Shown in pieces: positions 1,531 to 28,010 of a DNA stretch of 36,562 bases. Both the position numbers and the translations under genes were made by a program. Location of the stretch: contig CAYTVX010000002.1 of the NCBI GenBank assembly GCA_964441885.1, forward strand, positions 1 through 36,562. Direction: 5' to 3'. The first letter of the stretch is position 1; each line of letters begins with the position of its first letter. The stretch comes from an uncultured Candidatus Saccharibacteria bacterium. GTDB taxonomy: Bacteria > Patescibacteriota > Minisyncoccia > Phycocordibacterales > CALRHW01. The notes under the pieces were generated by a model. That model was not told the origin of the DNA, did not search any database, and saw only the letters and a program-made list of their open reading frames with translations.

Positions 1531-1536
1531 TATAAT
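1531..1536 (+). promoter_or_regulatory. -10 box TATAAT 6 nt upstream of the pilB-like ATG at 1543 (candidate leaderless promoter)
   Basis: Sequence is aatgctagTATAATctatatATG. There is no SD. Confidence 0.4.
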
Positions 1537-1542
1537 CTATAT

Positions 1543-11166: not shown

Positions 11167-11400
11167 AAACTGTAATGTATTAATTAATATTATATTAAAT
11201 ACTATTATTACTATAAGGACTGTTGATAACTGGATAACTCAAATTAGTCTTATTTTAAAACGTATTTTTAACTTTTCTTATCAACAACCTGTTAATTTTA
11301 TTTGGTAAGTTGTGTGTATTTTTTAAACTTTTACACAATTTAACATTCTTATCCACACACTTCGCTCTCTATTCACATCATATACACATTGTATAAAATA
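11167..11400. promoter_or_regulatory. Candidate oriC in the dnaA-dnaN spacer: DnaA boxes plus an AT-rich unwinding element
   Basis: A perfect TTATCCACA lies at 11349-11357. TTATCAACA lies at 11278-11286 (+) and 11221-11229 (-), and TTATCCAGT lies at 11229-11237 (-). Positions 11167-11220 contain only 8 G/C in 54 nt by hand count. Confidence 0.55.
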
Positions 11401-12750: not shown

Positions 12751-12887
12751 AAATTGTTAGAGTTATTATATATGATTGTCTGTTTCTTCCTACTTGTTAA
12801 AAAGATGTAGTTATGTTGATACGTTGTGTATAAAGTGTGGACAGCTTTGTTTTGTTGTAAAACCTTGAATTAATTATGTTCCTCATA

Positions 12888-12893
12888 TATAAT
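12888..12893 (+). promoter_or_regulatory. -10 box TATAAT 8 nt upstream of the rpmH ATG
   Basis: Sequence is cctcataTATAATcccctattATG. Confidence 0.4.
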
Positions 12894-12901
12894 CCCCTAT
12901 T

Positions 12902-13036
12902 ATGTCTCAAACATACCAACCAAAAAAACGAAAACGAGGAAAAGCTCATGGATTTTTAGTGCGCCAAAGAACTGCTGGTGGAAAGAAAACCATCAAACGC
13001 CGACGTCAAAAAGGTCGAAAAAAGCTATCTGTTTAA
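12902..13036 (+). CDS. rpmH: 50S ribosomal protein L34
   Basis: My own translation is [44 protein letters not shown] (44 aa). It shows the classic L34 sequence and the classic position upstream of rnpA. It is below the ORF-track cut-off. Confidence 0.92.
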
Positions 13037-13048
13037 ACAAAAACAAAC

Positions 13049-13375
13049 ATGTTACCCTCAAAAAAGAGGATATCAAAGGACTCTTTTAAGTCTATTTTAG
13101 TGGGTGGAACGGTGATTCATTCTCCCAACTTCACACTTCGCACTGTTTCCTCTTCGGTTGAGGGTTATGCTGTGTTGGTTTCCAAGAAGGTCGCCCCGCA
13201 GGCTGTTTTAAGGAATAAGATAAGAAGGAGGGTTTATTCTATTATTCACAAAGCTTCTCCCTTTATAAAAAAAACAGCCAAGAATATCATTTCAGCCAAA
13301 GCCGGTGTTAAAAATCTTTCTTTTTCAGCCACCCAAGAGGAGGTGTTTCAATTATTGAAAAAGGCACTGCAGTAA
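13049..13375 (+). CDS. rnpA: Ribonuclease P protein component
   Basis: 108 aa and basic, with an RNR-like motif (LRNKIRRRVYS). The rpmH-rnpA-yidC synteny is conserved. Confidence 0.8.
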   Translation: MLPSKKRISKDSFKSILVGGTVIHSPNFTLRTVSSSVEGYAVLVSKKVAPQAVLRNKIRRRVYSIIHKASPFIKKTAKNIISAKAGVKNLSFSATQEEVFQLLKKALQ

Positions 13376-13392
13376 GATACAATGGTCTGATA

Positions 13393-14121
13393 ATGTCTGC
13401 TATATACAACACACTTATTTATCACCCACTCTACAACGGGTTGATTTTGCTTATGGATGTAATTCCTTGGGTTGATGCCGGAGTTATTGTTGTTTTGTTT
13501 ACTGCTATTATAAAACTCATATTGTTTCCCCTTTCAAAAAAAGCAGTAAACACGCAGATTCAAATGAAAGCTGTTGAACCAGAGCTTGCAGAGATTAAGG
13601 AAAAGTATAAAAACGACAAACAGGAGCTAGCTAGAAAAACGATGGATCTTTATAAAGAAAAAGGCATTAGGCCCTTTACGAGCGTTCTTCTTGTTTTTAT
13701 ACAGTTACCAATTATTTTTGCGCTCTACCGAGTTTTTTGGCACTCAGGATTACCAACAGTAAACACGGATATTTTATATAGCTTTGTGCATGTTCCAGAA
13801 TCAATCAATATGATGTTTCTTGGTCTTATAAACATCTCATTAAAAAGTAAGATTTTGGCTGTTTTGGTTGGCTTGTCTGCGTATTTACAAGCAAGAATAG
13901 TGACACCAAAACCTGTTCCTAAAAAAGATACCAACCCAAATGACAATTCTTTTAAGCATGATTTCGCTCGAAGTATGAGCATCCAGATGCGTTACGTTTT
14001 TCCAATAATCGCAGTTTTTATTTCCTACGGTATTTCAGCCGCGATTTCTTTGTATTGGATAACAAGTAATATCTTTACAATAGGTCAGGAGTTGTTTTTG
14101 AAAAGAAAACTAAAGAGATAA
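13393..14121 (+). CDS. yidC: Membrane protein insertase YidC (short, YidC/Oxa1 core only)
   Basis: 242 aa with about five TM segments. The amphipathic segment is KMKAVEPELAEIKEKYKNDKQELARKTMDLYKEKGIRPF and the tail is basic. Synteny supports the call. Confidence 0.85.
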   Translation: MSAIYNTLIYHPLYNGLILLMDVIPWVDAGVIVVLFTAIIKLILFPLSKKAVNTQIQMKAVEPELAEIKEKYKNDKQELARKTMDLYKEKGIRPFTSVLLVFIQLPIIFALYRVFWHSGLPTVNTDILYSFVHVPESINMMFLGLINISLKSKILAVLVGLSAYLQARIVTPKPVPKKDTNPNDNSFKHDFARSMSIQMRYVFPIIAVFISYGISAAISLYWITSNIFTIGQELFLKRKLKR

Positions 14122-15372
14122 AAGATCAAGGCTCCAAAGCGTTAGATCTGTTTTGTTGGTAAACAGTAAGAAGTTTTCAGCATCATCTAGTGTGAGATTG
14201 ATTGCGTCTACGTCTTTTCCAGATGCTTCTTTTATGTCTGAAAGTTTTTCACTGGTGCCTTTTGATAAATCTATTTTCCACAAACTATCAGAGAATGAAA
14301 TCAAACCTTTGTACCAAGAGTCTGGGTATTCCCCACTTGGTATTTTTGAAGGTATCGCACAATATACAGTGCCTGTTGTTTTTTTACTCCACACACATTT
14401 TTCTGTAAATGTTGGATTTGATGGTACTGGAGCAGAAATTCCTTCTTTTATGTTGTAAAAACTAAAAGAAACACTACCATCGGCGTTGATTTTATTAAAC
14501 AGTGTTGTAGAGGCTGTTTTGTTGGTTAGTGTTGTGAGTCCTTGTATTCCGCCAAGTATTCTTTGCATTTTTCCTGTGGTTGTATTGGTAAAGTACAAAT
14601 ATCCAAAGCTTTGTGCGCTAGCTTTTGTAGTGAGTGTTAGTGTGTCGCTTTTCGGCCACTGCACCACCCATTCATTTATTGGAGACTCAAAGACCGTTGT
14701 CTTTTTTGTGCCGTCTGGATTTGAGATTGCTCCAACGCTTCCAGTGCCAGCTTTTGTGAGGTAAAAGATTTGATCTTTTTTGTCTGGCACAGCCACAGCC
14801 ATCATATTTAAAGGAAGGTATGTGCTTTGTACTTCAGCAAGGTTGCTGTCTGGTGTGCTTGTGCCGTTTGTTGAAGCTGTGCTTGTGCTGAGTGTGCCGT
14901 AGATTGTTTCAATGAGATCACTGTCGTCTTTTAAATAACGTAGCAACACAGAGTCCTTTTTAAGGAAGGTTGCCTCTGCTATTTTGGGTATGGTTGTGTT
15001 TGATATTCTGTTTATTAGGGTTGTTTCTGTTTCTGCTTCGTATATGTTGCCTGTGCTTTTTTCTATAAAACTAATTATTGTTGTGCTTCCCTTTTTAAAT
15101 ACACCAGCTCCAGATACTGGAAAAGCATAAACCTGACGAAGGGTTGTGGGGATTGTTGGCTGTGTTGTAATGTCCTGTGTTGCTGTTGTTGGTTCTGTGA
15201 TGGGTTGGTCTATGTTATTTGAACCTTGTCCAAAAGGAAAATAATCGCGCAGGTTTATTCCACCCACAGTGGTGTCTCCTACACCCCCCTCTCGTGTGAA
15301 ATATATAAAACCAAGAACACCAAGAGCGATGACTAGGATTATAACTATAAAGATTATGATCTTATTCAACAT
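14110..15372 (-). CDS. Membrane-anchored extracytoplasmic protein of unknown function (last gene of the T4SS-like block)
   Basis: This is the 420-aa version, starting at ATG 15370-15372 two nt after the stop of the upstream gene. It has the N-terminal anchor IIIFIVIILVIALGVLGFIYF, a T/P-rich linker and a beta-rich body. I recognise no family. Its 3' end overlaps the yidC 3' end by 12 nt. Confidence 0.6.
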   Translation of the reverse strand: MLNKIIIFIVIILVIALGVLGFIYFTREGGVGDTTVGGINLRDYFPFGQGSNNIDQPITEPTTATQDITTQPTIPTTLRQVYAFPVSGAGVFKKGSTTIISFIEKSTGNIYEAETETTLINRISNTTIPKIAEATFLKKDSVLLRYLKDDSDLIETIYGTLSTSTASTNGTSTPDSNLAEVQSTYLPLNMMAVAVPDKKDQIFYLTKAGTGSVGAISNPDGTKKTTVFESPINEWVVQWPKSDTLTLTTKASAQSFGYLYFTNTTTGKMQRILGGIQGLTTLTNKTASTTLFNKINADGSVSFSFYNIKEGISAPVPSNPTFTEKCVWSKKTTGTVYCAIPSKIPSGEYPDSWYKGLISFSDSLWKIDLSKGTSEKLSDIKEASGKDVDAINLTLDDAENFLLFTNKTDLTLWSLDLLSL

Positions 15373-15374
15373 AT

Positions 15375-15791
15375 TTATAATATTTTTAACGTGGTTGAGA
15401 CCAGATTTGGGTTTATTGTTTTTAAGATAAACCAAGCCAGTATTGCCAAAAGAAGACCTAGTAGCGCTCTTTTTATCCTTTCTTTTCCGTCACTTTTCCC
15501 AGAAATAGAGTCGGTAGACATATACTCTATACCACCAATAACTATTTCTATTACAGCAAGAACGCCAGCTATACCGATGAGAAGTTTAAACATTCCAGGA
15601 AGATATGTGCTGAGCTCTGTTTTACCAGAAGAACAATTTGCATCACCGGTCGTACAAGTGTAAGGAAGTGGGCTTAGTGGGGTGTACTGTACTGGCTGTG
15701 CGTGGAGTGTTTTTGTATTTGAAAATATACCGCAAGCCAAAAAAAGCATCACCACAGAACTCAATAATATTTTTTTTATATTTATTTTCAT
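15375..15791 (-). CDS. VirB2/TrbC-like T4SS pilin candidate
   Basis: 138 aa. It has a signal peptide (...FSNTKTLHA|QP), then two hydrophobic helices (MFKLLIGIAGVLAVIEIVIGGIEYM and ALLGLLLAILAWFILKTI) separated by the charged loop STDSISGKSDGKERIKR. This is the topology of VirB2-type pilins. An ATGA start/stop overlap joins it to the upstream gene. Confidence 0.6.
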   Translation of the reverse strand: MKINIKKILLSSVVMLFLACGIFSNTKTLHAQPVQYTPLSPLPYTCTTGDANCSSGKTELSTYLPGMFKLLIGIAGVLAVIEIVIGGIEYMSTDSISGKSDGKERIKRALLGLLLAILAWFILKTINPNLVSTTLKIL

Positions 15792-16795
15792 ATATTTATT
15801 TGTCCACCATTCTGATTAAGTGCTTCAAATTTTATTGTTGTAGAGTAGTTTGCAAATTGTAACATTTTTTCAATGTTCTCAATCGCAAGAGAAATGATGG
15901 CTGTGCCACCCACCGAGCCCTCGGGCCTTCTTAAGACGAGAGAGTTTGGTTTTTCTTGGTTTGGTGTTATTTGTCCATTCATTTTCCATTTGTATGAAAG
16001 TGCTGGCGCGTCTTTTCTGTCTACCCCAAAGAAATATGGTGCAGAAGCGAGAGACACCTCTTTATCTCCCAGATCAAACTGTGACGGTAGTGCTTTGTTG
16101 TACATGATTCCATATAGTGGGTGGTTTTCATACAAAAGAACTTGCGGTTGGACACCACGCAGTTCTACGGCACTCTCTGATTTTAGACTACCATCTGCGT
16201 TTGTTACTTCTACGGCTATTACAAATGGTTTTGCTAAGACACCGCTACTGGTTGAGAGGAAGTTTTTGCCGTATCCAGATTGGTTACTTAGGACGCTGTT
16301 ATTTCTACTCCATTTGTATGAAAGAGTTTTTGGGTCTATGTTTTTTCCATCACTACCCACAAAAGAAGGCATGGCTATAAACTGAACAGTGCTTTGTGTA
16401 GAATATAGCGCTTTTCCTTTGTAAAAAGGCGGTGTGTAAGTATTTGCTTGCCAGAATAGTTCTAGGCCAGTGGGTCTGATCTCTGCTGTTTTTGTAAAGC
16501 TGTTTGATGATACTTTTATCGTGGAAACACTGCCGAGCTGTTTTGTTGTAAATTGAAATTGTCTTTCACCCATTCCCTTTTTTTCTACCTTACCGTCAAC
16601 AGACCAGACAAGTTCTAGGTTGTTTAGGTCAAACGCAAAGTTTTCTACCCGCACAGTCACCTGTTCATTTGGTCCGGGGTGTAGAGGGGTTATAAAAAAC
16701 TCTGTCTGACTTGGTGTCTGTGCGTGAGCCGTAAATCCAAACATTGAAAAAACAAATAAGAAAAAGATGATTGTTTTTTTGTGACTGTAGAGCAT
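15788..16795 (-). CDS. Secreted protein with three tandem beta-sandwich-like modules, unknown family
   Basis: 335 aa with the signal peptide MLYSHKKTIIFFLFVFSMFGFTAHA|Q. A module signature recurs three times: LELVWSVDGKVEKKG, LSYKWSRNNSVLSNQ and LSYKWKMNGQITPNQ. Confidence 0.6.
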   Translation of the reverse strand: MLYSHKKTIIFFLFVFSMFGFTAHAQTPSQTEFFITPLHPGPNEQVTVRVENFAFDLNNLELVWSVDGKVEKKGMGERQFQFTTKQLGSVSTIKVSSNSFTKTAEIRPTGLELFWQANTYTPPFYKGKALYSTQSTVQFIAMPSFVGSDGKNIDPKTLSYKWSRNNSVLSNQSGYGKNFLSTSSGVLAKPFVIAVEVTNADGSLKSESAVELRGVQPQVLLYENHPLYGIMYNKALPSQFDLGDKEVSLASAPYFFGVDRKDAPALSYKWKMNGQITPNQEKPNSLVLRRPEGSVGGTAIISLAIENIEKMLQFANYSTTIKFEALNQNGGQINI

Positions 16796-16816
16796 TTGAG
16801 TTGTTTCAGCTCTTTA

Positions 16817-16825
16817 ATTTTAGCA
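16817..16825 (-). promoter_or_regulatory. Possible internal promoter (extended -10 TGcTAAAAT) ahead of the secreted-protein/pilin sub-operon
   Basis: The minus strand reads cgTGcTAAAATtaaagagctgaaacaactcaaATG. It sits in the largest gap (32 nt) of that part of the block, right after the stop at 16828-16830. Confidence 0.3.
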
Positions 16826-16827
16826 CG

Positions 16828-17454
16828 CTACGCAGTTTGTTCAATGCGCGGTCTGCGTGGTTGTGAATTGTTTTTTGGTTTTCCTCCGACATTACCAATA
16901 TCAGCAACCCCTCTTATTACTTCTAGTGATTTGGCAAAATTACCCATTCCTGGATTTGCAGCAATGGCAGCTAGTGTAGCCAACACACCCATTATTTTAT
17001 CAATAGCTTCTTCTGCCCAAACACTTAGGATAATAAGTAAAATAGCTCCAAGCCACCCAGGTATATCGTTTATCACGGGTATTGCTTCTATCGTGATTCC
17101 TGTCCCAAAAATTAACCCCCTTTGTTTTATTACGTTTTTTACTGCGGTTTTTATCATGTCACCACCAGAGCTGATGGCGCTTTTTGATTTGAATCCGGTT
17201 GCTTTACCATTTTTAAATTGATCACCGGCTATTCTCGTTACATCTTTTATGCTGAAAAAGCTCACGCCGTTTACCTTTAGCCATATATAAAACACCACAC
17301 CAGCTATCACTGTGATAATTGTTGAAAATATTACGGAAACTATTATTAAAACTATTGTTGCATCAAGCAAGCTCACGACGAATTGCAGAAGGTCAAAAAT
17401 ACCAGCGACAATTAGCATTGCAACCGCTGTAAATTTTCCTATATGTTGTTTCAT
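16828..17454 (-). CDS. Polytopic membrane protein, unknown family
   Basis: 208 aa with several hydrophobic segments (FTAVAMLIVAGIFDLLQFVV, IVLIIVSVIFSTIITVIAGVVFYIWL, GWLGAILLIILSVWA) and a basic C-terminal tail. A 7-nt gap separates it from the VirB4 gene. Confidence 0.6.
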   Translation of the reverse strand: MKQHIGKFTAVAMLIVAGIFDLLQFVVSLLDATIVLIIVSVIFSTIITVIAGVVFYIWLKVNGVSFFSIKDVTRIAGDQFKNGKATGFKSKSAISSGGDMIKTAVKNVIKQRGLIFGTGITIEAIPVINDIPGWLGAILLIILSVWAEEAIDKIMGVLATLAAIAANPGMGNFAKSLEVIRGVADIGNVGGKPKNNSQPRRPRIEQTA

Positions 17455-17461
17455 AATTTTT

Positions 17462-19276
17462 TTAAGCCCCAGAAGCCTCTAAGTCTTTTTTTGCTTTCTG
17501 AATAGATAGCACCTGAGATGGATCAGAAGTAATAATTTGATCTTCTGTATATGATGCAATAATTTTAATCGCAACGTGCTTTAAGCCGGCAAAGAAAATA
17601 CCCTCTCCCACTGAAGATTCAAGCAGTAAGTATTTTTCTTCATCTGTAAGGTTGAATGTTTGTTGGAGTTTGTCTATGGAGGTTGGAGATTGTTTTAACA
17701 AAACTTGAATTGAGGAGTTGGTGATGATCGGCATTCCATATGGAGATTTTAGAAAATCATCTACGTCTTGAGTGATTGTCGCCAGTCCAAGGTAATATTT
17801 TCTTCCACGTTTTGCTAGGCTGAGCAAGAAAGATGCGGTGTCTTCTGATTTCATCATCCACCACGCCTCGTCTATCACAAGAAGGCGCTTTCGCAATTCT
17901 TTTCTAATAGCACTCCAAATATAGTGGGTCACTATATACATTGCTATTGGTTTTAGCTCGTCTTCCATGTCCCGCAAAGAAAACACAATAAATTTTTTGT
18001 TTATATCTATATTTGTTGGCCTGTTTATAAAGCCCGCCCATGTGCCCTTTGTATATTTTGAAAGACGTTGTGCCAAAGATTCTCCCCCCTCCATTCCTGT
18101 GAGCACAAGCTCAAAATCTGACATAAGTGGTGGATCAATGTTTGAAAAATCAGACTCAGCGGTGATATCTTTGAGCGCGTATGTTTCTGTGATGGCTCGG
18201 TCCATAATAGCGTCTTCTTCTGGGGTGAGTCCGCCGAGCATGAGTCTGAATAGACCAACGAGATTTATAATGTTGCTTCTAAGTACGCTCGATGCGCTTT
18301 CGCCCTCCCCTGGCATCGGCAGGTCAAACGGGTTGATATGGTGTTCTGAATTGAGGGAGATTTTAAAATATCTTCCACCCACAGCTTCAGCCATGTATTC
18401 ATACTCTCGTTCGGGGTCTATGACTATTACTTCTGTATCAAACATTAGAGTACGTAGAATCTCAAGCTTTGTGGCATATGATTTTCCAGAACCAGATTTT
18501 GCAAAAGTGATTGAGTTGTAGTTTTCAAGAGAGAAGCGATCAAAAAGCACAAGGCTTGAGTTGTGGCGGTTGATGCCATACAAAATTCCTTTGTCTTCGG
18601 TGAGATCAAAAGATGTAAATGGAAAAAGACTTGATAGTGGAGAAGAGTTGAGCTTGGAATGAACTTCTAGCAAGTCTGTGGCGATTGGTAGGACGCTTTT
18701 GTATCCTTGTTCTTGTTGGAAAAGTGCAGGCTTTACATATACAAGCTTTGATTCAAGAATAGATTTCATTTCTGATTCTATTTTATCTAGCTCTGCCTCA
18801 CTTTCTCCGTACAAAGAAATGTATAGACCAACATCAAAAAGTTTTTCTTGGGCTTGTTGTAAATTGTCACGAAGATTTTCTAAGTCTTGATATGCGGTGT
18901 CTAGCATTGGATCTCGTACCATCCCCTTTTCTTCTCGTTCGTGAATCTGGCTTTGTACCTCGGCCACCTTTTTTTGAAATTGTCGCAGTACTTTTACAGT
19001 ATCTATTGGGTGAATAAAAATAGATACATCAAAAACTCTGTCTAAGTTGATGATTGGAGCAAACCAGCTTTCTCCAAGGAAGCGTGGATATGAAATAACA
19101 AAAAAGGTGCGAACTATTTTGTCTCCAAGATTGAGCTCTCTTGGGCCTATTTTCAATGCACTTGGTGCAATAATATCTTTAAGCTCAAGGGTTTGAGCTT
19201 TGTATATCTCTTGTGGCAACATTCCCACAAGTTCTTCTTTACTTTCTTTTCTAAATAATTTGCTAAAAAAACTCAT
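17462..19276 (-). CDS. virB4: VirB4/TraC/TrsE-type T4SS ATPase
   Basis: 604 aa with Walker A FAKSGSGKSYATK, Walker B RLLVIDEAWWMM and the downstream motif GRKYYLGLATITQ. The N-terminal region (RTFFVISYPRFLGESWFAPII..DVSIFIHP) is typical of Gram-positive-type VirB4 proteins. Confidence 0.85.
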   Translation of the reverse strand: MSFFSKLFRKESKEELVGMLPQEIYKAQTLELKDIIAPSALKIGPRELNLGDKIVRTFFVISYPRFLGESWFAPIINLDRVFDVSIFIHPIDTVKVLRQFQKKVAEVQSQIHEREEKGMVRDPMLDTAYQDLENLRDNLQQAQEKLFDVGLYISLYGESEAELDKIESEMKSILESKLVYVKPALFQQEQGYKSVLPIATDLLEVHSKLNSSPLSSLFPFTSFDLTEDKGILYGINRHNSSLVLFDRFSLENYNSITFAKSGSGKSYATKLEILRTLMFDTEVIVIDPEREYEYMAEAVGGRYFKISLNSEHHINPFDLPMPGEGESASSVLRSNIINLVGLFRLMLGGLTPEEDAIMDRAITETYALKDITAESDFSNIDPPLMSDFELVLTGMEGGESLAQRLSKYTKGTWAGFINRPTNIDINKKFIVFSLRDMEDELKPIAMYIVTHYIWSAIRKELRKRLLVIDEAWWMMKSEDTASFLLSLAKRGRKYYLGLATITQDVDDFLKSPYGMPIITNSSIQVLLKQSPTSIDKLQQTFNLTDEEKYLLLESSVGEGIFFAGLKHVAIKIIASYTEDQIITSDPSQVLSIQKAKKDLEASGA

Positions 19277-19281
19277 GGTGT

Positions 19282-19920
19282 TTATTGAAGTTGAATAGGC
19301 TTTTCTGCATCGCCCGGATTGAAAATTTTATAAAATAATTCTACCACCTCTTCTGTGCCGAGCTGTATTACACGTATACCAGAGCTCACTAGCCCCTGCT
19401 CTACCACAGAAAGTCTCTGCTCTAGCTGTGTGCGACGCTCTTCAAAAACCTCTTGTGTGTCTACTTTTTTTTCTTCCGCATTTTTCTTTTTACCAAAAAT
19501 TCCAGCAACTGGGTTTTTACCCTGCAGAGCACCAGGTGAATACGGCACGATGACAAAGAAGTGTTTTGTCATGATGTTGGTGTTTTCAGTAAAATTTTTA
19601 ATGAACCCAATGTATTCTTGCACCTGAATTTTCATTAGATCATTTACTTGGTTTTTTTCGCGCTCTTCTAATAGGGCTATGTATGGACGAATATCAAGGC
19701 GGCGAGATTGTATAAAAATTTGTACAGAAAAATCGAGGGAGTTTAGGAAATCTTGGAACTGGTAGATTATAGCTGTGCGCTCGTCGTCTGATTTAAGAGA
19801 AAAATTGATAGAGCTAGCCATCAAAACAGCACGAAGTGAGCCGTCTTTTAGTGTTATGATTCCATCCTTTATGTCACTGATAGGAACAAATTCTTGAGAA
19901 GCTCTTGCGGTTGTTGCCAT
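19282..19920 (-). CDS. Soluble protein resembling the N-terminal domain of VirB4 proteins
   Basis: 212 aa with no TM. IITLKDGSLRAVLMASSINFSLKSDDERTAIIYQFQDFLNSLDFSVQIFIQSRRLDI follows the pattern recalled from VirB4 N-termini (..kDGsl.....l.G..fe....e.e.......n.l........l..h..Rr). It lies between the VirB3-like and VirB4 genes. Confidence 0.5.
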   Translation of the reverse strand: MATTARASQEFVPISDIKDGIITLKDGSLRAVLMASSINFSLKSDDERTAIIYQFQDFLNSLDFSVQIFIQSRRLDIRPYIALLEEREKNQVNDLMKIQVQEYIGFIKNFTENTNIMTKHFFVIVPYSPGALQGKNPVAGIFGKKKNAEEKKVDTQEVFEERRTQLEQRLSVVEQGLVSSGIRVIQLGTEEVVELFYKIFNPGDAEKPIQLQ

Positions 19921-19929
19921 ATGAAAGAA

Positions 19930-20370
19930 TTATAGCTTATTTTCTTCCGTATTTGAATTCTTTTTGAGTGGATTTAGATTTTCTTTTACACTCAGACTCC
20001 ACGTCATATCTTTTAGCTTACTACCAGAGAGTTTTGGTAAAAGGTCTCCCGACAGCTCTTTTGGTTTTTCACCAAGAGCAATTTTTCTTTGAGAGTGCTT
20101 CCATATATAGAGCTTGCTTGCGACAGAATATTTGAAAAAGGCCTCCACCACACGTATAAACGGCTTGTTGTTTACTTTGTAAAAAGCTAGAGCCGCACCA
20201 AATAGAAGTACGGGTAGCATAATCATCACAGCGATTATTCTTACGGGAATCATATAGAATAAGATCACGCAGGCCCCAGCACTACCAGCAAGATAAATAA
20301 ACTGCTTAAATGTAAGCGGGCCAAAAATTTTATCTTCTACATCTGTAAATTGGGGTACTTGAAATCTCAT
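19930..20370 (-). CDS. PrgI family (VirB3-like) two-TM protein
   Basis: 146 aa. The N-terminus MRFQVPQFTDVEDKIFGPLTFKQFIYLAG is followed by two TM helices. This is the signature arrangement of PrgI-family proteins of Gram-positive conjugation systems. Confidence 0.65.
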   Translation of the reverse strand: MRFQVPQFTDVEDKIFGPLTFKQFIYLAGSAGACVILFYMIPVRIIAVMIMLPVLLFGAALAFYKVNNKPFIRVVEAFFKYSVASKLYIWKHSQRKIALGEKPKELSGDLLPKLSGSKLKDMTWSLSVKENLNPLKKNSNTEENKL

Positions 20371-20375
20371 ATTTT

Positions 20376-21008
20376 TTATTCTATTGGTTCACGATATGGG
20401 TCGGTAGAGGTGTACGGTTTTGTGGTAATTGTCTTTGGGATGTTGTTTAAATTTATGCGCACTTCTTCTCGTGGAATTTTTACAACACCACCAAGCTTAT
20501 CGTCTATAATAGTGCCAGTACCAGAGTGCGCTGAAATAAGCGCAGGATGCTCTATTTCTCTTAGAAGCGTATCTTTGTTGAGTGTAATGGCAGCACTTAC
20601 ATCTCTTGTTCCCTCTATTTCTTCGCTTGGTATTTCTCTCTCTATTTGAACACCTTGCACGGGAGCTTCGGTTTGGATTGGTTTCTCTTCTTTTACGATA
20701 CCTCCCATTTTACTAAAAATCTCTCTTTGTATTCCCTGCTCTACACCCACCGCCACACCTTCATCCATTCCGAGCTTTTTTATTAGTTCGTTTACGAGTT
20801 GGTTTCTTGGCAAAAAACCCAGCGTTACTTGAGTCATTAGGTTACTCATTCCACCAATTCTTTTAATATCGGTGATTTTATTTTCTCTAGCAATATCACG
20901 AAGAGATTTGCTTGTATCAAGGGAAAGCAAAATATCTTTTATATTCTGAGGTAATTTTTCAAATGCTTCTTGCTCTTTTGTTTTTGGTGGCATATTTTTA
21001 GAATTCAC
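20376..21008 (-). CDS. Hypothetical soluble protein in the T4SS-like block
   Basis: 210 aa with no hydrophobic segment and a central E/Q/P-rich linker. It overlaps the stop of the upstream gene by 11 nt. An alternative start M6 at 20993 removes the overlap. Confidence 0.5.
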   Translation of the reverse strand: MNSKNMPPKTKEQEAFEKLPQNIKDILLSLDTSKSLRDIARENKITDIKRIGGMSNLMTQVTLGFLPRNQLVNELIKKLGMDEGVAVGVEQGIQREIFSKMGGIVKEEKPIQTEAPVQGVQIEREIPSEEIEGTRDVSAAITLNKDTLLREIEHPALISAHSGTGTIIDDKLGGVVKIPREEVRINLNNIPKTITTKPYTSTDPYREPIE

Positions 21009-23427
21009 TTAATCCAGGACCCATTAGCCATATCGCAGTGTCTAGTATTCTCTCTTCGGCTGGTGTGTGTGCTGTTCCTACGGGAGTGTTCATTATAGCT
21101 GTTGCTTCGTTTACTATTGCGATTCTTATTGCATCTTGTTTAGCATCACTTAGATCACCTTTCATTTTTTGTAGCATTGCTGGGGTATAAATTGGTAGCA
21201 CTCCAGGATTTGTGAGTACAGCAACACCAAGCTGACCCCTTTCTTTTGAATTCATATTGGTCACAGCTTCACGTACCTGTTCGTAATTATCTACAGCTGT
21301 TGAAAGTGGTGTGCCCACAGGTGTACTTGTTGATGCCCTGTTTAGTGTTGCATTAAATAACGCATTTCGGTCGTCGGTCATCTGTTGTTTTTGAGGGAGT
21401 GTGTAGTTTACGTTGTCTGGTTTTGATATAGTATCAAACTTATCTTTAGAGATACTTCTAATAAACGGTCCGTGTTGAGTAAATCTTGTACCACTCATTT
21501 CAATTTCTCTAGTAGACATTGCAGATACTCTGTCTCTAGCCGCCACAAACCTTGGTTCTCGCCTTACATTTTCTATTCTTGCTGTTCTTGCCGCTCCAGT
21601 GAGTGTTGTGTTGGCTATATTTATTTGGTCTTCTTCTTCTCTTAGTGTGTTTACCACAGCATCCATAGGTGCAAATCGAGCTGTGCGTATTCTTTCTTTG
21701 TCGGCTTCCGGTTTGTCACTTTTTTCTAGAATATGTTCAATTTGTCTGGTGTTGAAGTGTTCTACGTGTCTTACCAAATCACTCGTACCCATAGCGTCGA
21801 GTTCTTTTGTGGACATGTTGTTTATCCTCTCTCTAAATCTTCGATTGTGCTCTTCTATTCTTGTGTTGTTTGCGATTTGAACTGGGGTAAGAGCTGGCCC
21901 TCCTGGAGTGGCTGTAACTATTCCCGTCATTATTCCCTGTCTTAGTATATTGTCAGTTTCTCTTTCTCTGTCTTTCAATGCAATATCTTTTCCTGTTTTC
22001 TTCCAATCATCAAATGTAATTTTTCCGCCAAATTTTGACCCAGCAATTTTTTCGGTAGTCACTTCTCTCACGACACGTCCAGCACGAGAATTTCCAACCC
22101 AAGTTTTCTTTAGTTTGTCGTCTGCCCAGCGTCCAGCACGACCAACTGTTGTTGCAGCAATTGCTCCACCAGTTGTTTTTACGCTACCCACCGCAAAACC
22201 TCGCACCCTTGCTCCAGTTTTTTCTAGAAAATTAAGAGCCTTACCTGCTCCGTATGCACCCATTTGTTTCCCTACTACAAGAGAGAATATAAGCATTGAA
22301 ATAACAATAATGAAGTTCATTATTATGTGTATGTTTTCTGGAGCTGGTGGTGCGCCAGCTGCTCCAGGAGTAAAAAGACTTGTCCATACAGATGCATTAG
22401 CAACGCCATTAGTTGAGTTGGCAGCTGATTCTGTTGGAGCCAAAACACCAGATAAAACCGTGAGTGATACCCATATTAGTGCCATACACACAGGAGCAAA
22501 AATACATTGGTCTATAAGCTTGTTCCACCACATTTTAGAATATTTATCTGTTGGCAGTGCCATTGAAACAAAAGCAATTGGAGAAAGGATCATTAAGAAT
22601 ATTAATGTTACAAATCTACCGATAAACATAATACTAAAAGCAAAAAATACCACCGCGGCCACAAGTAGAAAAACAGAACCCAGTAAACCACCCAAGAATA
22701 TTTCACCGAGAGTTTGGGTTGAAGACAACACAGAGGTTGGGTTTACTGCAAATTGCGGTGATATCAAGCCAGTTAGAAGCATTTTTTGTACAAAAGCTCC
22801 AGCGATTCCCAATCCATTTGCTGCGGGTCCTATTATTTGATTATAAAATCCAATCGTTACAATGTTTGATGCGTCAATTATTATTTTTGTAAAGAAAAGG
22901 CTGAAGTTTATTAGAAGTGCCACAACTACCACATTCACAAGCATTTTTTTTACGTTGATACCACTTAGGTTTAAAATACTAGCTATAGCTATGTAGAGGA
23001 TTATAAAAATAAACAGCATATTTGATAGGTCTCTGAATGTTTCCCAAGCTAGATTGAGCGTAGAAATACCACCAACATTCGTAGACATGTCCACAACCGT
23101 ATATTTCATGACGGCTTCCATTAGTGTTCCAGATATCCATAAGATAAGCGCGGAAAGAGAAAGGGCTAATTGGCCTAGCCAAGCTAGCAAAATTTTTAAA
23201 ATAGGCTCTACAAGTGCTGTGGCAATATCCTGCATCATTACCACGTTGCCATAACCAGGTATTGCATATGATGCAAAGTGTCCCAGTGTTGACCAGAATC
23301 CACCATCCTCTGTATTCCCCGGTGCTGTTGTTTGGGCATTTGTGATTGTTGGAGCTAATACCAAAAAAGTCACAACAAGTGTGAGTATAATGTTTCTGAA
23401 AAGTTTTTTCTTGAAAAAAGAATTCAT
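20998..23427 (-). CDS. VirB6/TrbL-like polytopic membrane protein with a ~400-aa hydrophilic C-terminal extension
   Basis: 809 aa. It has a signal/anchor (IILTLVVTFLVLAPTITNAQT), at least seven hydrophobic helices across residues ~70-390, then a charged domain containing three degenerate ~40-aa repeats (RERINNMSTKELDAMGT, RDRVSAMSTREIEMSGT, REAVTNMNSKERGQLGV). Confidence 0.55.
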   Translation of the reverse strand: MNSFFKKKLFRNIILTLVVTFLVLAPTITNAQTTAPGNTEDGGFWSTLGHFASYAIPGYGNVVMMQDIATALVEPILKILLAWLGQLALSLSALILWISGTLMEAVMKYTVVDMSTNVGGISTLNLAWETFRDLSNMLFIFIILYIAIASILNLSGINVKKMLVNVVVVALLINFSLFFTKIIIDASNIVTIGFYNQIIGPAANGLGIAGAFVQKMLLTGLISPQFAVNPTSVLSSTQTLGEIFLGGLLGSVFLLVAAVVFFAFSIMFIGRFVTLIFLMILSPIAFVSMALPTDKYSKMWWNKLIDQCIFAPVCMALIWVSLTVLSGVLAPTESAANSTNGVANASVWTSLFTPGAAGAPPAPENIHIIMNFIIVISMLIFSLVVGKQMGAYGAGKALNFLEKTGARVRGFAVGSVKTTGGAIAATTVGRAGRWADDKLKKTWVGNSRAGRVVREVTTEKIAGSKFGGKITFDDWKKTGKDIALKDRERETDNILRQGIMTGIVTATPGGPALTPVQIANNTRIEEHNRRFRERINNMSTKELDAMGTSDLVRHVEHFNTRQIEHILEKSDKPEADKERIRTARFAPMDAVVNTLREEEDQINIANTTLTGAARTARIENVRREPRFVAARDRVSAMSTREIEMSGTRFTQHGPFIRSISKDKFDTISKPDNVNYTLPQKQQMTDDRNALFNATLNRASTSTPVGTPLSTAVDNYEQVREAVTNMNSKERGQLGVAVLTNPGVLPIYTPAMLQKMKGDLSDAKQDAIRIAIVNEATAIMNTPVGTAHTPAEERILDTAIWLMGPGLSEF

Positions 23428-23430
23428 AGA

Positions 23431-24399
23431 TTAGTTACCAATTAGTCCTCCAGATCGAGTCACTACTTGCTGTATTAGTTGTCCGAGTGCTGCCGACAAA
23501 ATCTCATCAAATTCATCCGCGAGTTCAAGTTGTCTTAGTCCGTCACCAAGAACATTGCTGAGTTGGTCATTTACTATTGTGCCTGGTGTTTTTATTTCAC
23601 TCCATCTCTGGCACTGCTGAGTTTCTATATTACTTTCAAGACATTCTTGGGTTGATAGAAAACCCTTACCCCAATCAAGCTTTTGTTGATCTTCAGCAAT
23701 ATTACCTGCAATTCTAGCGCTAAGTTCTGTTTGTGCGATTAAATAAGCGCCAGATGGATTGTTTTGTGGGTTTTGTGTAATTCTAAACCACGTATTCCAG
23801 CCACCTTGGCTAAAATCATTCGTAAAGCCCTCAACGTTGTTGACTACATCAGTGAGTGTACACCCTATTCTATCTCTAAAGGTGTGAGAGTAGTTGATAT
23901 TGAGGGCTAGTTTTATCTGTAGTTTAAATGGAGAACACAAAAATCCAAGTCCGGCGTCATTTTGTATAAAATCACCAGCGACTCTGTCGGCTGTATTTAT
24001 AAAAAAGGTTGCTGGGTCAGTGACAAATTGTGGTGCGCCATTAAATCCACCATTAATCCAGTTTATTAAAGAGCCCGTAAATTGCTTTATGATGATTTGA
24101 GTAGCGCCCTTGGCAATAGAATCTAGACCAGTACCCGGAACTCCAGCTGGCCCCACCTCTTTTAATGTGATGAGGTTTGTGTTGTAGGCAGTATCAAAGG
24201 TATTGGCAGATATGTCTGCTGCCAGGAATTCAATTTCCTGTGTGCTCAGTAGAAGGGGTGATCCCGCTGTTTCTATTACTGGCACAGCGATTTGGGCGTG
24301 AGCTATGGAGAAAAAGGATAAACTGGCAATAGAAAATACTATAAATAAAGCAGACGAAAATATTTTTTTCTTGAAAAATCTAAAAAGTGTAATAACCAT
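23431..24399 (-). CDS. Secreted Cys-containing protein, unknown family
   Basis: 322 aa with the signal peptide ...FSIASLSFFSIAHA|Q. It has five Cys in the mature part and a W/N/G-rich core (LINWINGGFNGAPQFV, GGWNTWFRITQNPQNNP). Confidence 0.6.
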   Translation of the reverse strand: MVITLFRFFKKKIFSSALFIVFSIASLSFFSIAHAQIAVPVIETAGSPLLLSTQEIEFLAADISANTFDTAYNTNLITLKEVGPAGVPGTGLDSIAKGATQIIIKQFTGSLINWINGGFNGAPQFVTDPATFFINTADRVAGDFIQNDAGLGFLCSPFKLQIKLALNINYSHTFRDRIGCTLTDVVNNVEGFTNDFSQGGWNTWFRITQNPQNNPSGAYLIAQTELSARIAGNIAEDQQKLDWGKGFLSTQECLESNIETQQCQRWSEIKTPGTIVNDQLSNVLGDGLRQLELADEFDEILSAALGQLIQQVVTRSGGLIGN

Positions 24400-24414
24400 G
24401 TATATATTCTAAAA

Positions 24415-25398
24415 TTATATACTATGCACCAGTACAAAACCACCTTCTTCTTCCCCAAATACTACGTTTTTTTCGTTAAAGTATGAGACTGTGTCTGCTA
24501 ATGCTTTGTGTAGATCCCCCACTCTCTTTTTATAATAAACATAGCCACTTAGTCCGCCAATTGGATCGTCAAAATATATTCTCATACCCTGGTCGGAGGC
24601 AAGAACCGCGTTTAGTGTGTTCAGTAGATTTAAATGAGTTTGTGCTGCACTTTTTGGAACCGCTACAGTAGAAAATTCAGTGATAATATTTTTGTAGCTT
24701 TTTATAATAATATCCAATTTTTCTAACTCTTTTGCATTTTGATTTTGGATTGCTTTAGAGAAAATAACAAACTCATTTTCAAGTTCTTCTTTTTTTGGGG
24801 AATTATTTATAAGTATTGTACCGAGTGTATTGCCGTATTGTTTGATACTTTCTTCTGAATCATTGTCGTTTATTTTGATATTGGCAAGTGTAAATTGTTT
24901 GATTTTATCTTCTATTGCGCTCTTGTTTAGGATACTGTTTACGATTTGTTGCTGTTGCTCAGTGTTTCCAATTATTGGCACCCCAGATTTTTTGTACTCT
25001 GCATAAGTAGTAAAAAAATCTCTAGCAAATGTGTCTGTTTGCGTTAGATTTTCTGTAATTTTTGTGGCGGTTTTTTGAGTGTTTTTGTATATAACCTCGC
25101 TGTTTTTAGAGATTTTTTGTAGCTCAACCTCTTTTACATCAGATACACCGTCTTTGTCTGTGTCACCAGAAAGTGGATTCATTTTCCAGAGAATTTCTTC
25201 CCAGTCTTTTAGGCCGTCTCCATCAGTATCTTTGTCTGCATCAGCTTTTATGGCATCACTAACCAAAACTTGTGGCGACGCTTTTATTTTTGCTGTATAT
25301 GTTTGTGTTGCTGGGTGTTTAGAGGAAAGGTAAATTCCACCAACAGCAATAATGCAGGCCACAAGTATTAGTAAGATTTTTTTTCCTGGCATTTTCAT
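24415..25398 (-). CDS. Membrane-anchored protein with thrombospondin-type-3-like calcium-binding repeats
   Basis: 327 aa with the N-terminal anchor ILLILVACIIAVGGIYL. It has two DxDxDGxxD-type motifs (DADKDTDGDGLKDWEE and SGDTDKDGVSDVKE). The remainder is helical and unassigned. Confidence 0.6.
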   Translation of the reverse strand: MKMPGKKILLILVACIIAVGGIYLSSKHPATQTYTAKIKASPQVLVSDAIKADADKDTDGDGLKDWEEILWKMNPLSGDTDKDGVSDVKEVELQKISKNSEVIYKNTQKTATKITENLTQTDTFARDFFTTYAEYKKSGVPIIGNTEQQQQIVNSILNKSAIEDKIKQFTLANIKINDNDSEESIKQYGNTLGTILINNSPKKEELENEFVIFSKAIQNQNAKELEKLDIIIKSYKNIITEFSTVAVPKSAAQTHLNLLNTLNAVLASDQGMRIYFDDPIGGLSGYVYYKKRVGDLHKALADTVSYFNEKNVVFGEEEGGFVLVHSI

Positions 25399-25431
25399 GT
25401 TTAAGGTGTTGAAATTTTCACCTTTATTATA

Positions 25432-26883
25432 TCAGAATTTTGAGGTGTCGGTGTTAATTTGGCTGTATAAAATGTCTGTTTCTTCTAGCGGAGTTATGAT
25501 TTTTCCAAACGGATTGATAACCAAAGAAGTTCCTTTTTTTTCTGAACGTATAACAAAAGATCTGTTTTCTATTGCACGCATTCTGGCGATAGACTGATTG
25601 TATTTTTCTCCCCTATTGTTTGCAAAGACACTATCATTTGAAATATTTATAATTGTTTTTTGTTTATTTTTTCCTAGATCAGTAGAAATTATTTCCGAGC
25701 AAATAAGCGGTATTGTTTCAATTCCAGAAGTGAATACGGTTTTTTTGTCAGCATTTCCTTTTGTGATTATTTCAGAGTGCTTACTTTGCAGAAAACTGGG
25801 CACACTTTCTGATAGAGGAAGTGGTCGGCGTTTGTGATATATGTCTACAATTTTGCCCCCCTCTAGTACTACAAGTGAGTTGTAGTTTTTCTCGTTCGTT
25901 TGTGTGTGCATTCCGATGATAAAAGACGTGGCATTGTAATCAGAAGAAATTTTAATTAATTCATCAAACATTTCTGCTATTTTCCCTTGCGGAATGTTGT
26001 AGCCGTCTGGTTTTTTTGTTTTTTCGTCTAATACAAAAAGTGGAAATGTATTTTCTGGTAAAACGACGATATTATTTTTTTTCTCCGCGGCCTCTTTGGT
26101 TAGTTTAAAAATATTTGCGTATATTTCAGGTGTGTTTATGTGTTCTGTTTTTTTATTTATAGATATTAGTGCAACACTTTTTCTTTCTTTTGGTGGTATA
26201 TAGTTTTTGATTGTAAAATATCCACCAACTAGAACAATTAAAAAAACAGAAACCGCGCTGATTAAAATTTTGTAGTTTATTTTTTTTGTAGAGATGTATG
26301 TTTGTATAACGTAAGAAATTGATAAATTTATATAAATTATAAAAAAAGCTAAACCAGAAATATTAATCCAGTAAGAAAGGTAGGCTATGTGTGCTGTGTT
26401 ATATAAATTATATCCAATATTTCCCCACCCTAATCCGAATACAGAATATGTGCGTATTGTCTCTATGCTTGCCCAAATAATAGGAAAAATAAAAAAGTCA
26501 CTCCATTTTTTTTGTTCCAAAAACAAAAATGATAAGGTAAAGAGTACAAACGTTGTAATCGTTAGGTAAATAGCCAAAATTACAATGCATAGTGTCCACA
26601 AAAAGACTCGGTATTCCCAAATCCAGGTGTTTGGTGGAATCCACCACCATGCATCAAGTGAGACGAGTGGCCATAAAACAGTAAGAAAATATATAAAACC
26701 AGTTAAGAATGCTCCCTTAAGCTTTTCTTTGGTAGAGATGTTTTTTTTAAAAATAAACAAAAAAAATGGCACAAAACTAATCCAAACCAAAGTACGGATA
26801 TTCCACGGGGCTAGAGTTAAGGACAGTAAAAGCCCAGAGATGATTGGAAGAATAAAGGTTTTGTAAGTTTCTAGCTTTCTCAT
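25432..26883 (-). CDS. lnt: Apolipoprotein N-acyltransferase
   Basis: 483 aa. A multi-TM N-terminal half is followed by a C-terminal carbon-nitrogen hydrolase domain with the Lnt triad context VVLPENTFP (Glu), HKRRPLPLSE (Lys) and IPLICSEI (Cys). Confidence 0.75.
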   Translation of the reverse strand: MRKLETYKTFILPIISGLLLSLTLAPWNIRTLVWISFVPFFLFIFKKNISTKEKLKGAFLTGFIYFLTVLWPLVSLDAWWWIPPNTWIWEYRVFLWTLCIVILAIYLTITTFVLFTLSFLFLEQKKWSDFFIFPIIWASIETIRTYSVFGLGWGNIGYNLYNTAHIAYLSYWINISGLAFFIIYINLSISYVIQTYISTKKINYKILISAVSVFLIVLVGGYFTIKNYIPPKERKSVALISINKKTEHINTPEIYANIFKLTKEAAEKKNNIVVLPENTFPLFVLDEKTKKPDGYNIPQGKIAEMFDELIKISSDYNATSFIIGMHTQTNEKNYNSLVVLEGGKIVDIYHKRRPLPLSESVPSFLQSKHSEIITKGNADKKTVFTSGIETIPLICSEIISTDLGKNKQKTIINISNDSVFANNRGEKYNQSIARMRAIENRSFVIRSEKKGTSLVINPFGKIITPLEETDILYSQINTDTSKF

Positions 26884-26933
26884 CTATATAATCATACAGT
26901 ATTTGTTGTGTTGTGAGAGTGTGTTTTTTACAA

Positions 26934-26939
26934 TACAAT
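26934..26939 (+). promoter_or_regulatory. -10 box TACAAT 6 nt upstream of ATG 26946
   Basis: Sequence is ttttTACAATACAATgaacgcATG. The tandem TACAAT copies are at 26929-26934 and 26934-26939. Confidence 0.35.
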
Positions 26940-26945
26940 GAACGC

Positions 26946-28010
26946 ATGTATAGACACCTCAAACTTCTTTTTATTTGTATCGTGGCAGTTTTCATTTGCA
27001 GTTTTGCTTCTAGTGCCGTTGCTTCTCCTTTTTTGTTTACTCGTGATCTTGCTCCAGGTGATACTGGCACAGATGTATATGAGCTTCAGAAGTTTTTAAA
27101 TAAAAATGAGAGTACTTTTGTGGCTATGAGTGGTCCGGGTTCTGCGGGAAATGAAACAAATTATTTTGGTCCAGCTACACAGGCCGGTGTAATAAAGTTT
27201 CAGAATGAGCACGCTTCTGAAATTTTAGTGCCACAGGGATCTTTTTCTGCCAATGGTTTGGTAGACGGTCTTACTCGAGCAAAACTTAATGAAATTTCTG
27301 CTCCACAGACAGAAAGTACAACAAATACAACAAACACAGGCACGCCAACACACGCAGGTAGAATGAGTGCCACCCACACACAGAGGTCAACTCAGGATCT
27401 CAGTGATGTGACACAGTTTAATCTTTTTACTGATAAGGATAATGACAAAGTACGTCTTGCGTTTATTTCTTCTAGCGCGGGCAAGGTTGGTAGTGAAATT
27501 GATTTTACAGGAACCGGTTTTTTACCAATCAACAATAGGATAATTTTCGGTTCTCATACCGTTTCTGGTGTGGCTTCTGTAAATAGTAACAAAATTAAAT
27601 TTACCATTCCCGATTCTATCCCAGCTGGAATATATGATGTAGAAGTTGGTAATACAAAGGGCACAAGTCAAAGCAATGCATATTTTGTGGTCACAGAAGA
27701 TGCGGTAAATATGCCCCCAAAGATTTTATCTGTTTCTCCCGCCGAACCATCTTTAGGAGATGAGGTTATAATTACAGGAGAAAATTTTACTACAAACGGA
27801 AACACTGTGCGTTCTACTTTGGGTGTTTTTACCAACCTCCCCTCTTCAGACGGCAAGACAATAAAGTTTCATTTGAAGGCTCCAGATAATTTACCTGAAT
27901 TTGAAACTTTATTTCAAGACAGCTCTTTTGAATTCAAGGTTTTCCTTTACGTTGTAAACATTCATGGGGTTAGTGAAAAAAACAAACCAGGTATAATTAC
28001 TTTGAAATAA
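26946..28010 (+). CDS. Secreted peptidoglycan-binding protein with IPT/TIG-like domains
   Basis: It has a signal peptide (LLFICIVAVFICSFASSAVA) and a PG_binding_1-like segment (GDTGTDVYELQKFLNKN...GPATQAGVIKFQNEH). A T/N-rich linker leads to two Ig-like segments (GSEIDFTGTGFLPINNRIIFG and GDEVIITGENFTTNGNTVRS). The track ORF starts at GTG 26913. Confidence 0.7.
   Translation: MYRHLKLLFICIVAVFICSFASSAVASPFLFTRDLAPGDTGTDVYELQKFLNKNESTFVAMSGPGSAGNETNYFGPATQAGVIKFQNEHASEILVPQGSFSANGLVDGLTRAKLNEISAPQTESTTNTTNTGTPTHAGRMSATHTQRSTQDLSDVTQFNLFTDKDNDKVRLAFISSSAGKVGSEIDFTGTGFLPINNRIIFGSHTVSGVASVNSNKIKFTIPDSIPAGIYDVEVGNTKGTSQSNAYFVVTEDAVNMPPKILSVSPAEPSLGDEVIITGENFTTNGNTVRSTLGVFTNLPSSDGKTIKFHLKAPDNLPEFETLFQDSSFEFKVFLYVVNIHGVSEKNKPGIITLK

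Follow-up and report, generated by a model that had tools for sequence, protein, structure and literature searches.

The minus-strand gene block at positions 14110-26883 of contig CAYTVX010000002.1, within the 36.5-kb stretch analyzed here as a whole (hereafter the window), very probably encodes the core-genome type IV secretion system (T4SS) of Paceibacteria (Parcubacteria; candidate phyla radiation [CPR]/Patescibacteria), a system inherited vertically that derives from the monoderm MPF_FATA, CD1110/pGO1-like conjugation machinery but is non-conjugative. The conserved block comprises 11 genes, namely a secretion engine and six lineage-specific proteins. In the engine, VirB4 is divided between a TrsD-like N-domain protein and a 604-aa ATPase, which are accompanied by a PrgI/VirB3 protein, a probable extended VirB6-like channel protein, and a single VirB2-like pilin.

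Relaxase-less, origin-proximal chromosomal T4SS clusters occur in nearly all ultrasmall CPR/Patescibacteria and have been described before (Wang et al. 2023, PMC10633639; Quinonero-Coronel et al. 2025, PMC12102498). The locus is one more example of this kind, described in 2023 and 2025, and not a new kind. Origin proximity, the missing relaxase, and a pilin on a monoderm core were all already published, and their novelty had been overstated in the first-pass annotation of this DNA. The 2025 survey of 3,035 genomes recovers a monophyletic Patescibacteria VirB4 clade nested in MPF_FATA, reports TrsD, PrgI/VirB3, VirB6, and PF18895/VirB2-like pilins as widespread in Patescibacteria with relaxases in only 103 genomes, and places the Paceibacteria locus near dnaA, dnaN, rnpA, ksgA, and rpmH (PMC12102498).

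Conservation and layout of the locus

Comparison of the window VirB4 with GTDB species genomes confirmed at least 594 relatives, and all locus counts given below out of 80 refer to the best 80 of these. The window protein is 80-95% identical to these 80, which come from CPR genomes mostly named Paceibacteria, Parcubacteria, Zambryskibacteria, Taylorbacteria, or related candidate phyla. By comparison, the best VirB4s from 72,556 plasmids reach only 28-35.5% identity; all are Firmicutes or Actinobacteria proteins of the CD1110 type, and they sit in classical MobC-relaxase-VirD4-PrgI-VirB4-SLT modules. This grouping was judged by identity percentages.

A single gene order recurs in dozens of species: uvrD-ksgA-(TIG/peptidoglycan-binding, p116)-g2-g3-VirB6-g5-PrgI-TrsD-VirB4-g9-g10-pilin-g12-yidC-rnpA-dnaA-dnaN (labels as in Table 1). 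Eleven block positions, all but that of Lnt, are syntenic in dozens of Paceibacteria/Parcubacteria species and always lie between ksgA-uvrD and yidC-rnpA-rpmH-dnaA-dnaN; the locus is therefore part of the core genome. The first-pass annotation had placed the block between yidC and housekeeping genes and had proposed a synteny comparison, which returned the same housekeeping flanks across these species.

The genes of the block have diverged to very different degrees. Across the 39 genomes that hold all compared genes, median pairwise identity is 80% for VirB4, 62% for TrsD, 61% for DnaA, 51% for PrgI, 49% for both DnaN and KsgA, and 21-30% for the envelope parts, a comparison in which VirB4 is slightly favored because the loci were picked by VirB4 similarity. 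This split fits an essential engine combined with adaptive surface parts.

Within the window, 12 minus-strand open reading frames (ORFs) run head to tail at spacings of -11 to +33 nt. The stop/start overlap ATGA was read directly at 15788-15791, and a 3-nt gap at 23428-23430 was deduced from the ORF coordinates. G+C content is even (0.36-0.41) over the block and its flanks. These spacings, the overlap, the gap, and a composition resembling that of the neighbors had all been reported previously and hold; the thirteen ORFs counted at that time are 12, in line with that annotation's own tally of four anchors, seven unknowns, and Lnt.

The Lnt gene at the head of the block, which had been counted as part of it, is genuine (TIGR00546, 178 bits against a cutoff of 132.9; Pfam CN_hydrolase and LNT_N), adjacent, and co-directional, with a G+C content of 0.31-0.35, lower than that of its neighbors. 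Only 1-2 of the 80 related loci have it at this position; it is therefore no conserved part of the T4SS block and resembles an insertion or acquisition specific to the lineage, in a presumed monoderm.

Table 1. Genes of the T4SS block and the origin-proximal flank
Feature	Gene-order label	Coordinates	Strand	Basis
Lnt		25432-26883	-	TIGR00546, Pfam
TSP3-repeat anchored protein, 327 aa	g2	24415-25398	-	without known family
Cys-rich helical protein, 322 aa	g3	23431-24399	-	without known family
Extended VirB6/TrbL-like protein, 809 aa (probable)	VirB6	20998-23427	-	orthologue TrbL matches, topology, position
DPYREP-tailed soluble protein, 210 aa	g5	20376-21008	-	without known family
PrgI/VirB3-family protein, 146 aa	PrgI	19930-20370	-	Pfam PrgI
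TrsD-like protein, VirB4 N-domain, 212 aa, soluble	TrsD	19282-19920	-	NCBIfam, BLASTP
VirB4 ATPase, 604 aa	VirB4	17462-19276	-	NCBIfam, Pfam, PDB
Small polytopic protein, 208 aa	g9	16828-17454	-	without known family
Secreted 3xIg protein, 335 aa	g10	15788-16795	-	repeats, orthologue Ig matches
VirB2-like T4SS pilin, 138 aa	pilin	15375-15791	-	Pfam PF18895
Transmembrane-anchored beta-propeller (predicted), 420 aa	g12	14110-15372	-	AlphaFold2
dnaN, dnaA, rpmH, rnpA, yidC		10063-14121		Pfam

Components of the secretion engine

The VirB4 ATPase lacks the usual N-terminal domain and carries the Walker A motif FAKSGSGKSY and the Walker B motif LLVIDEAWW, both read in the sequence. It passes the NCBIfam conju_CD1110 equivalog (376.6 bits against a cutoff of 325) over positions 177-733 of the 752-position profile and matches Pfam P-loop_TraG (5.7e-27) as well as AAA_10. 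Among PDB entries, it matches the Thermoanaerobacter VirB4 structure 4AG5 (4.6e-41) and TrwK (4e-8). Aligned to an unsplit 783-aa clostridial VirB4, it covers residues 205-754.

The missing N-terminal part is encoded by the neighboring upstream ORF at 19282-19920. Its product aligns by BLASTP to residues 35-128 of the same clostridial VirB4 (E = 1e-6) and matches the N-terminal regions of six VirB4/TrsD models, all under their curated cutoffs; NCBIfam matches include VirB4_plasma (3.3e-10), CD1110 at positions 7-119 (1.1e-6), and TrsD (8.2e-6; 25.8 bits against 200). From these matches to VirB4/TrsD N-terminal models and to VirB4 residues 35-128, we assign the protein as a split-off, TrsD-like N-terminal VirB4 domain. 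It is a separate ORF in 78 of the 80 relatives.

The PrgI protein matches its Pfam family well above threshold (2e-11; 44.7 bits against a cutoff of 27), contains two neighboring hydrophobic segments, and is present in 75-76 of the 80 relatives.

The pilin matches Pfam T4SS_pilin (PF18895; 1.5e-8, 35 bits against 26.6) and the NCBIfam Mbov_0395 pilin-like model (3.7e-5), and its topology comprises a signal peptide, a short Cys pair, and two hydrophobic helices. At 138 aa, it is a minimal form; the orthologue median is 322 aa, and longer orthologues place the T4SS_pilin domain first, followed by variable Cys-rich C-terminal extensions. Long orthologues were seen, for example, at L001:13433-14284, L013:12286-13128, L036:13236-14171, L022:13287-14159, and L049:15011-16309. 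Some orthologues carry an H..G....D...HWH motif that appears peptidase-like by eye; Pfam did not confirm it, one weak CHAP match (0.0035) being returned, and a pilin-hydrolase fusion was rejected.

The protein at 20998-23427 is a probable but not proven VirB6. A transmembrane scan shows a signal-like N-terminus and about 6-7 transmembrane segments in residues 1-400, followed by a hydrophilic C-terminal half of about 400 aa that is probably coiled-coil. The window protein itself has zero Pfam matches. TrbL is matched by 5 of 44 orthologues (best 6e-5), and the homologues P0266 and P0307 match nearly the full TrbL profile with 25.8 and 28.5 bits against a cutoff of 25.9; a precomputed PF04610 match exists in 8 of 111 database homologues. 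The gene lies upstream of PrgI, as PrgH does in pCF10, and hhalign of the family against PrgH gave no significant match.

Collectively, three of the four anchors named in the first-pass annotation stand as described: the VirB4 ATPase with FAKSGSGKSY and LLVIDEAWWMM, which passes the CD1110 cutoff and matches 4AG5, the PrgI-family protein with two transmembrane segments, and the pilin of VirB2 topology. The fourth, VirB6/TrbL, is upheld by topology, position, and relatives scoring at about the gathering threshold, and not by any match of the window protein.

Accessory proteins without a known family

The remaining novelty of the locus is its six lineage-specific envelope and accessory proteins without a known family. 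Five are envelope proteins, and the sixth is the soluble DPYREP-tailed protein. Seven partners had previously been called unassignable; six remain without a family, and the seventh is the TrsD-like protein discussed above. A signal peptide or membrane anchor reported for five of the unknowns was confirmed by the sequence and a transmembrane scan.

For the protein at 14110-15372, AlphaFold2 confidently models (predicted local distance difference test [pLDDT] 86.9, predicted template-modeling score [pTM] 0.78) an N-terminal transmembrane helix, a disordered linker of about 40 aa, and a beta-propeller. This prediction describes a membrane-anchored extracytoplasmic beta-propeller, which is not a known T4SS component. 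The best Foldseek matches in PDB are WD40 and TolB propellers (E about 1e-8, TM-score about 0.45), a generic fold match from which transfer of a specific function was rejected. The protein is present in 57-61 of the 80 relatives.

The protein at 15788-16795 combines a signal peptide with three tandem beta-sandwich (Ig-like) repeats, each bearing an xYxWxxNG motif, and is found in 70-76 of the 80 relatives. Its orthologues weakly match Ig-like families, including BiPBP_C (18 of 45, best 2e-4), Ig_3 (8 of 45), and PKD_3. The polytopic protein at 16828-17454, encoded directly downstream of VirB4, evolves fast; in 53 loci, a positional orthologue separates VirB4 from the Ig-repeat protein. Its family shares the motif FxxWF..G..KR..E.IP..LP.WT, and none of the orthologues has a Pfam match.

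The protein at 20376-21008, with a positional orthologue between VirB6 and PrgI in 46 loci (alignment A8), consists of an N-terminal helical part, a Pro-rich linker, and a C-terminal DPYREP. It has no Pfam or NCBIfam match and no transmembrane segment. The family evolves fast, yet DPYRE(P) is (nearly) invariant at its C-terminus, which suggests a conserved docking peptide.

The protein at 23431-24399 is secreted or anchored, helical, and carries four conserved Cys. Its 242 homologues are all hypothetical CPR proteins, some with C-terminal Ig-like domains (PF18998, fn3, SdrD_B), and the 322-aa window protein is a short form compared with a median of about 548 aa for orthologous ORFs. No fold is claimed for it, as the AlphaFold2 model was poor (pLDDT 63.7, pTM 0.29) and gave zero Foldseek matches. 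Finally, the protein at 24415-25398 comprises a transmembrane segment at residues 1-28, a weak TSP3-type Ca-binding repeat (DxDxDGxxDxxE; Pfam TSP3_bac 0.0051, under the cutoff), and a helical domain, and is present in 44-47 of the 80 relatives.

Profile searches extended these results. Orthologue alignments of five unknowns, run by hmmsearch against PDB, gave nothing significant, with coiled-coil, Ig-like, and TolB noise at E >= 0.01. Seven accessory-family alignments compared by hhalign with all pCF10 Prg/Pcf and clostridial plasmid T4SS proteins stayed at a probability of 13% or less.

Absence of transfer genes

A Pfam scan of every non-nested window ORF of at least 80 aa found no relaxase, no type IV coupling protein (T4CP)/VirD4, no VirB11, and no integrase, so that the absence of these genes asserted in the first pass extends to the whole window. 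Likewise, a clostridial VirD4, relaxase, MobC, and SLT protein used as tblastn queries had no match in the window or within 10 kb on either side of the loci of the 80 relatives.

No VirB1-type hydrolase or VirB8-like protein was recognized among the 11 block proteins, in that no SLT, CHAP, or NTF2-like match was obtained (Pfam, NCBIfam, PDB profiles, and hhalign against PrgK and PrgL); divergent analogues are possible. This agrees with the earlier observation that the block has no lytic transglycosylase and no recognizable VirB8. The M23/LysM enzyme encoded beyond the block, at 31251-32447, may take the place of the missing VirB1.

Proposed function and alternative explanations

In Southlakia epibionticum, epibiotic growth requires the T4SS genes and pilins but not comEC (PMC10633639; PMC12857230). 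In Paceibacterales co-cultures, T4SS pilins rank among the most highly expressed genes of unknown function (PMC10936435).

For the window locus, we propose that VirB4/TrsD docked on PrgI and VirB6 would power extraction of the pilin and its polymerization, giving a filament or conduit at the surface. Exposed proteins, which evolve fast, may adapt that structure to the host cell surface and mediate host-specific contact. The apparatus would then move macromolecules between epibiont and host, either proteins outward or host-derived molecules or DNA inward, rather than its own DNA, and its oriC-adjacent position may raise gene dosage.

Beyond this scheme, it is conceivable, if rather unlikely, that the six accessory proteins form a Paceibacteria-specific module replacing the VirB1, VirB8, and adhesins of monoderm T4SSs, turning the machine into a host-piercing conduit that imports host macromolecules. 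To our knowledge, that working mode has not yet been shown for any T4SS.

Two further proposals concern what the machine does; they are functional sub-hypotheses and do not exclude the identification as a core-genome T4SS. The first, to which we assign a low probability, is a DNA-uptake machine resembling ComB of Helicobacter or the archaeal Ced system, with host DNA serving as a nucleotide source or for transformation. CPR bacteria are without nucleotide synthesis, and import is the hypothesis favored in the survey (PMC12102498); the window also encodes ComM and a PilB-type ATPase, and a missing relaxase and T4CP is compatible with import. However, the window VirB4 scores 31.8 bits with the CedB model, far from its cutoff of 700, a similarity generic to P-loop proteins. 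Partners of a CedA-like or ComB-specific kind were not found, and no DNA-binding domain was recognized in the block (Pfam, NCBIfam). Furthermore, competence in S. epibionticum needs type IV pili and ComEC, and because comEC is dispensable while the T4SS is essential there, ComEC-mediated DNA uptake is not the essential role (PMC10633639; PMC12857230).

The second, which we regard as improbable, is a machine mainly for adhesion and pilus assembly, in which a VirB2 filament would attach the cell to its host without translocation. The presence and conservation of the pilin, its high expression in Paceibacterales co-cultures (PMC10936435), and fast-evolving exposed partners with adhesin-like folds (Ig repeats, the propeller, and Ig-like extensions in relatives) are consistent with such a role. 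CPR bacteria, however, already adhere by type IV pili, a PilB ATPase being encoded in the same window, and the very strong conservation of VirB4/TrsD, together with that of a probable VirB6 channel protein, is in keeping with a transport engine.

An ordinary or decaying integrative and conjugative element (ICE), with its relaxase, coupling protein, and integrase outside the window, was rejected on synteny and composition and is highly improbable. In its favor, the VirB4 family is otherwise typical of Firmicutes conjugative plasmids and ICEs, the window spans only 36.5 kb, and the survey reports VirD4-like genes elsewhere in most Patescibacteria genomes (PMC12102498). Against it, the block stands at the same site between the same housekeeping genes in dozens of species, which already contradicts this reading, and its composition equals that of the flanks. 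The roughly 17 genes to each side include no tRNA, integrase, or relaxase, and VirB4 exceeds DnaA in conservation. The published tree gives 99.3% of VirB4s a nearest neighbor in the same class, with relaxases in 103 of 3,035 genomes (PMC12102498).

Several observations weigh against a non-conjugative core-genome T4SS acting on a host. The operon structure is one that we infer from spacing; promoter and terminator scans gave counts no better than shuffles and were uninformative on it. The VirB6 assignment rests on orthologues, the window protein having no score of its own. No VirB8-like or VirB1-like component that would account for passage through the cell wall was recognized in the block. A relaxase or T4CP may lie elsewhere in the genome, as the scan covered the 36.5-kb window, and VirD4-like genes lie far from virB4 in most genomes of the survey (PMC12102498). 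Essentiality data concern one Saccharimonadia species, S. epibionticum (PMC10633639).

The identification as a core-genome T4SS agrees with much of what had been proposed from the letters of this DNA. A T4SS on a minimal Gram-positive-type core with a VirB2-like pilin fits both the tool results and the published view (PMC10633639; PMC12102498; PMC12857230), and the conclusion that the block is not an ICE is borne out by core-genome synteny and a window free of transfer and integration genes. An apparatus for contact with a partner or host cell in a reduced-genome organism is likewise in keeping with the results and the published view; uptake or effector delivery is an inference, one also found in the literature.

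Few "extra" machines are conserved in minimal host-dependent bacteria; the Patescibacteria T4SS is among them and has proved essential in the only species tested. Surface parts that evolve fast contrast sharply with an ATPase whose conservation exceeds that of DnaA. The locus offers a compact Paceibacteria example with one pilin and a clear list of parts, which helps in choosing structural and co-culture targets; it is not a discovery, and its residual interest lies in the uncharacterized accessory module.

Genomic neighborhood

The origin-proximal flank dnaN-dnaA-rpmH-rnpA-yidC, with dnaA at 11401-12750 and rpmH at 12902-13036, is common to most relatives. The dnaA-dnaN spacer contains TTATCCACA-like DnaA boxes, one of them exact, at 11221, 11278, and 11349 (span 11221-11357) and is likely oriC; window-wide counts of TTATCCACA-like sites were not above chance.

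The remaining sizeable window ORFs with a family match are housekeeping genes, encoding TsaE, a PilB-type ATPase, RuvB, YebC, RuvC, an aminoacyl-tRNA synthetase, PBP1a, KsgA, UvrD, an M23/LysM peptidase, ComM, a DksA-like zinc finger protein, an NYN-domain protein, and S15. The same origin-proximal neighborhood thus holds a PilB-type type IV pilus ATPase (1423-3219, plus strand), the M23+LysM peptidoglycan peptidase (plus strand), and ComM (32451-33992, minus strand). Neither an Rfam RNA family nor a tRNA or tmRNA was detected in the window.

Two plus-strand genes are oriented divergently beside the block. The adjoining one (26913-28010) encodes a secreted protein with PG_binding_1 and TIG domains, and the other (28021-28371) encodes a small Cys-rich anchored protein; tblastn placed them next to the T4SS block in 19 and 8 of the 80 relatives, respectively. 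Elsewhere in the window, a 228-aa minus-strand ORF (731-1417) has a lipobox-like N-terminus (LVGGC), a raised G+C content of 0.44-0.46, long ORFs overlapping on both strands, and no Pfam or Rfam match.

Comparison with known systems

The archaeal Ced DNA-import system resembles the window locus in having a VirB4-family ATPase without a relaxase, possibly used for import. It differs in its ATPase, as the low CedB score reported above indicates, and in its CedA-like partners, none of which was found in the window.

With the pCF10 Prg/Pcf and clostridial CD1110 modules, the window locus shares a VirB4 that passes the CD1110 model and, with the probable VirB6 in the place of PrgH, the order PrgH(VirB6)-PrgI-PrgJ(VirB4). 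Their VirB4, however, is unsplit (783 aa), and they carry PrgK (VirB1), PrgL (VirB8), PcfC (VirD4), and a relaxase. The window accessory families show no detectable similarity to Prg/Pcf proteins at the hhalign probabilities given above.

The MPF_FATA systems of pGO1, pSK41, and pIP501 (TrsC-TrsD-TrsE) share with the window a separate TrsD-like protein beside VirB4. The gene order on these plasmids is VirB3-like, TrsD-like, VirB4, and the same order is found in the window. In contrast, the plasmid systems carry a relaxase, a T4CP, a VirB1-type hydrolase, VirB8-like proteins, and surface adhesins and are without a pilin, and the TrsD model scores the window protein far under its cutoff, as given above.

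By description, the T4SS of S. epibionticum ML1 (SEML1_0006-0019) is alike in its monoderm-type core, its VirB2-like pilins, the lack of a recognizable relaxase, and its chromosomal position near the start of the genome numbering (PMC10633639). It belongs to a different class, Saccharimonadia, and differs in having six divergent pilins and essential peptidase and lysozyme genes beside virB4; its essentiality has been shown experimentally (PMC10633639).

The closest match is the Patescibacteria-clade T4SS of the survey (PMC12102498). As far as its text shows, the searches of that survey gave the six accessory families no family assignment. The window locus carries a single minimal pilin, whereas orthologues are mostly longer and other classes have arrays, and it has Lnt inserted at its upstream end. 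Both have VirB4, TrsD, PrgI/VirB3, and a PF18895 pilin with no relaxase or T4CP nearby, and the window locus also has a probable counterpart of the survey's VirB6. Both are chromosomal and adjoin dnaA, dnaN, rnpA, rpmH, and ksgA, and nothing essential differs between them.

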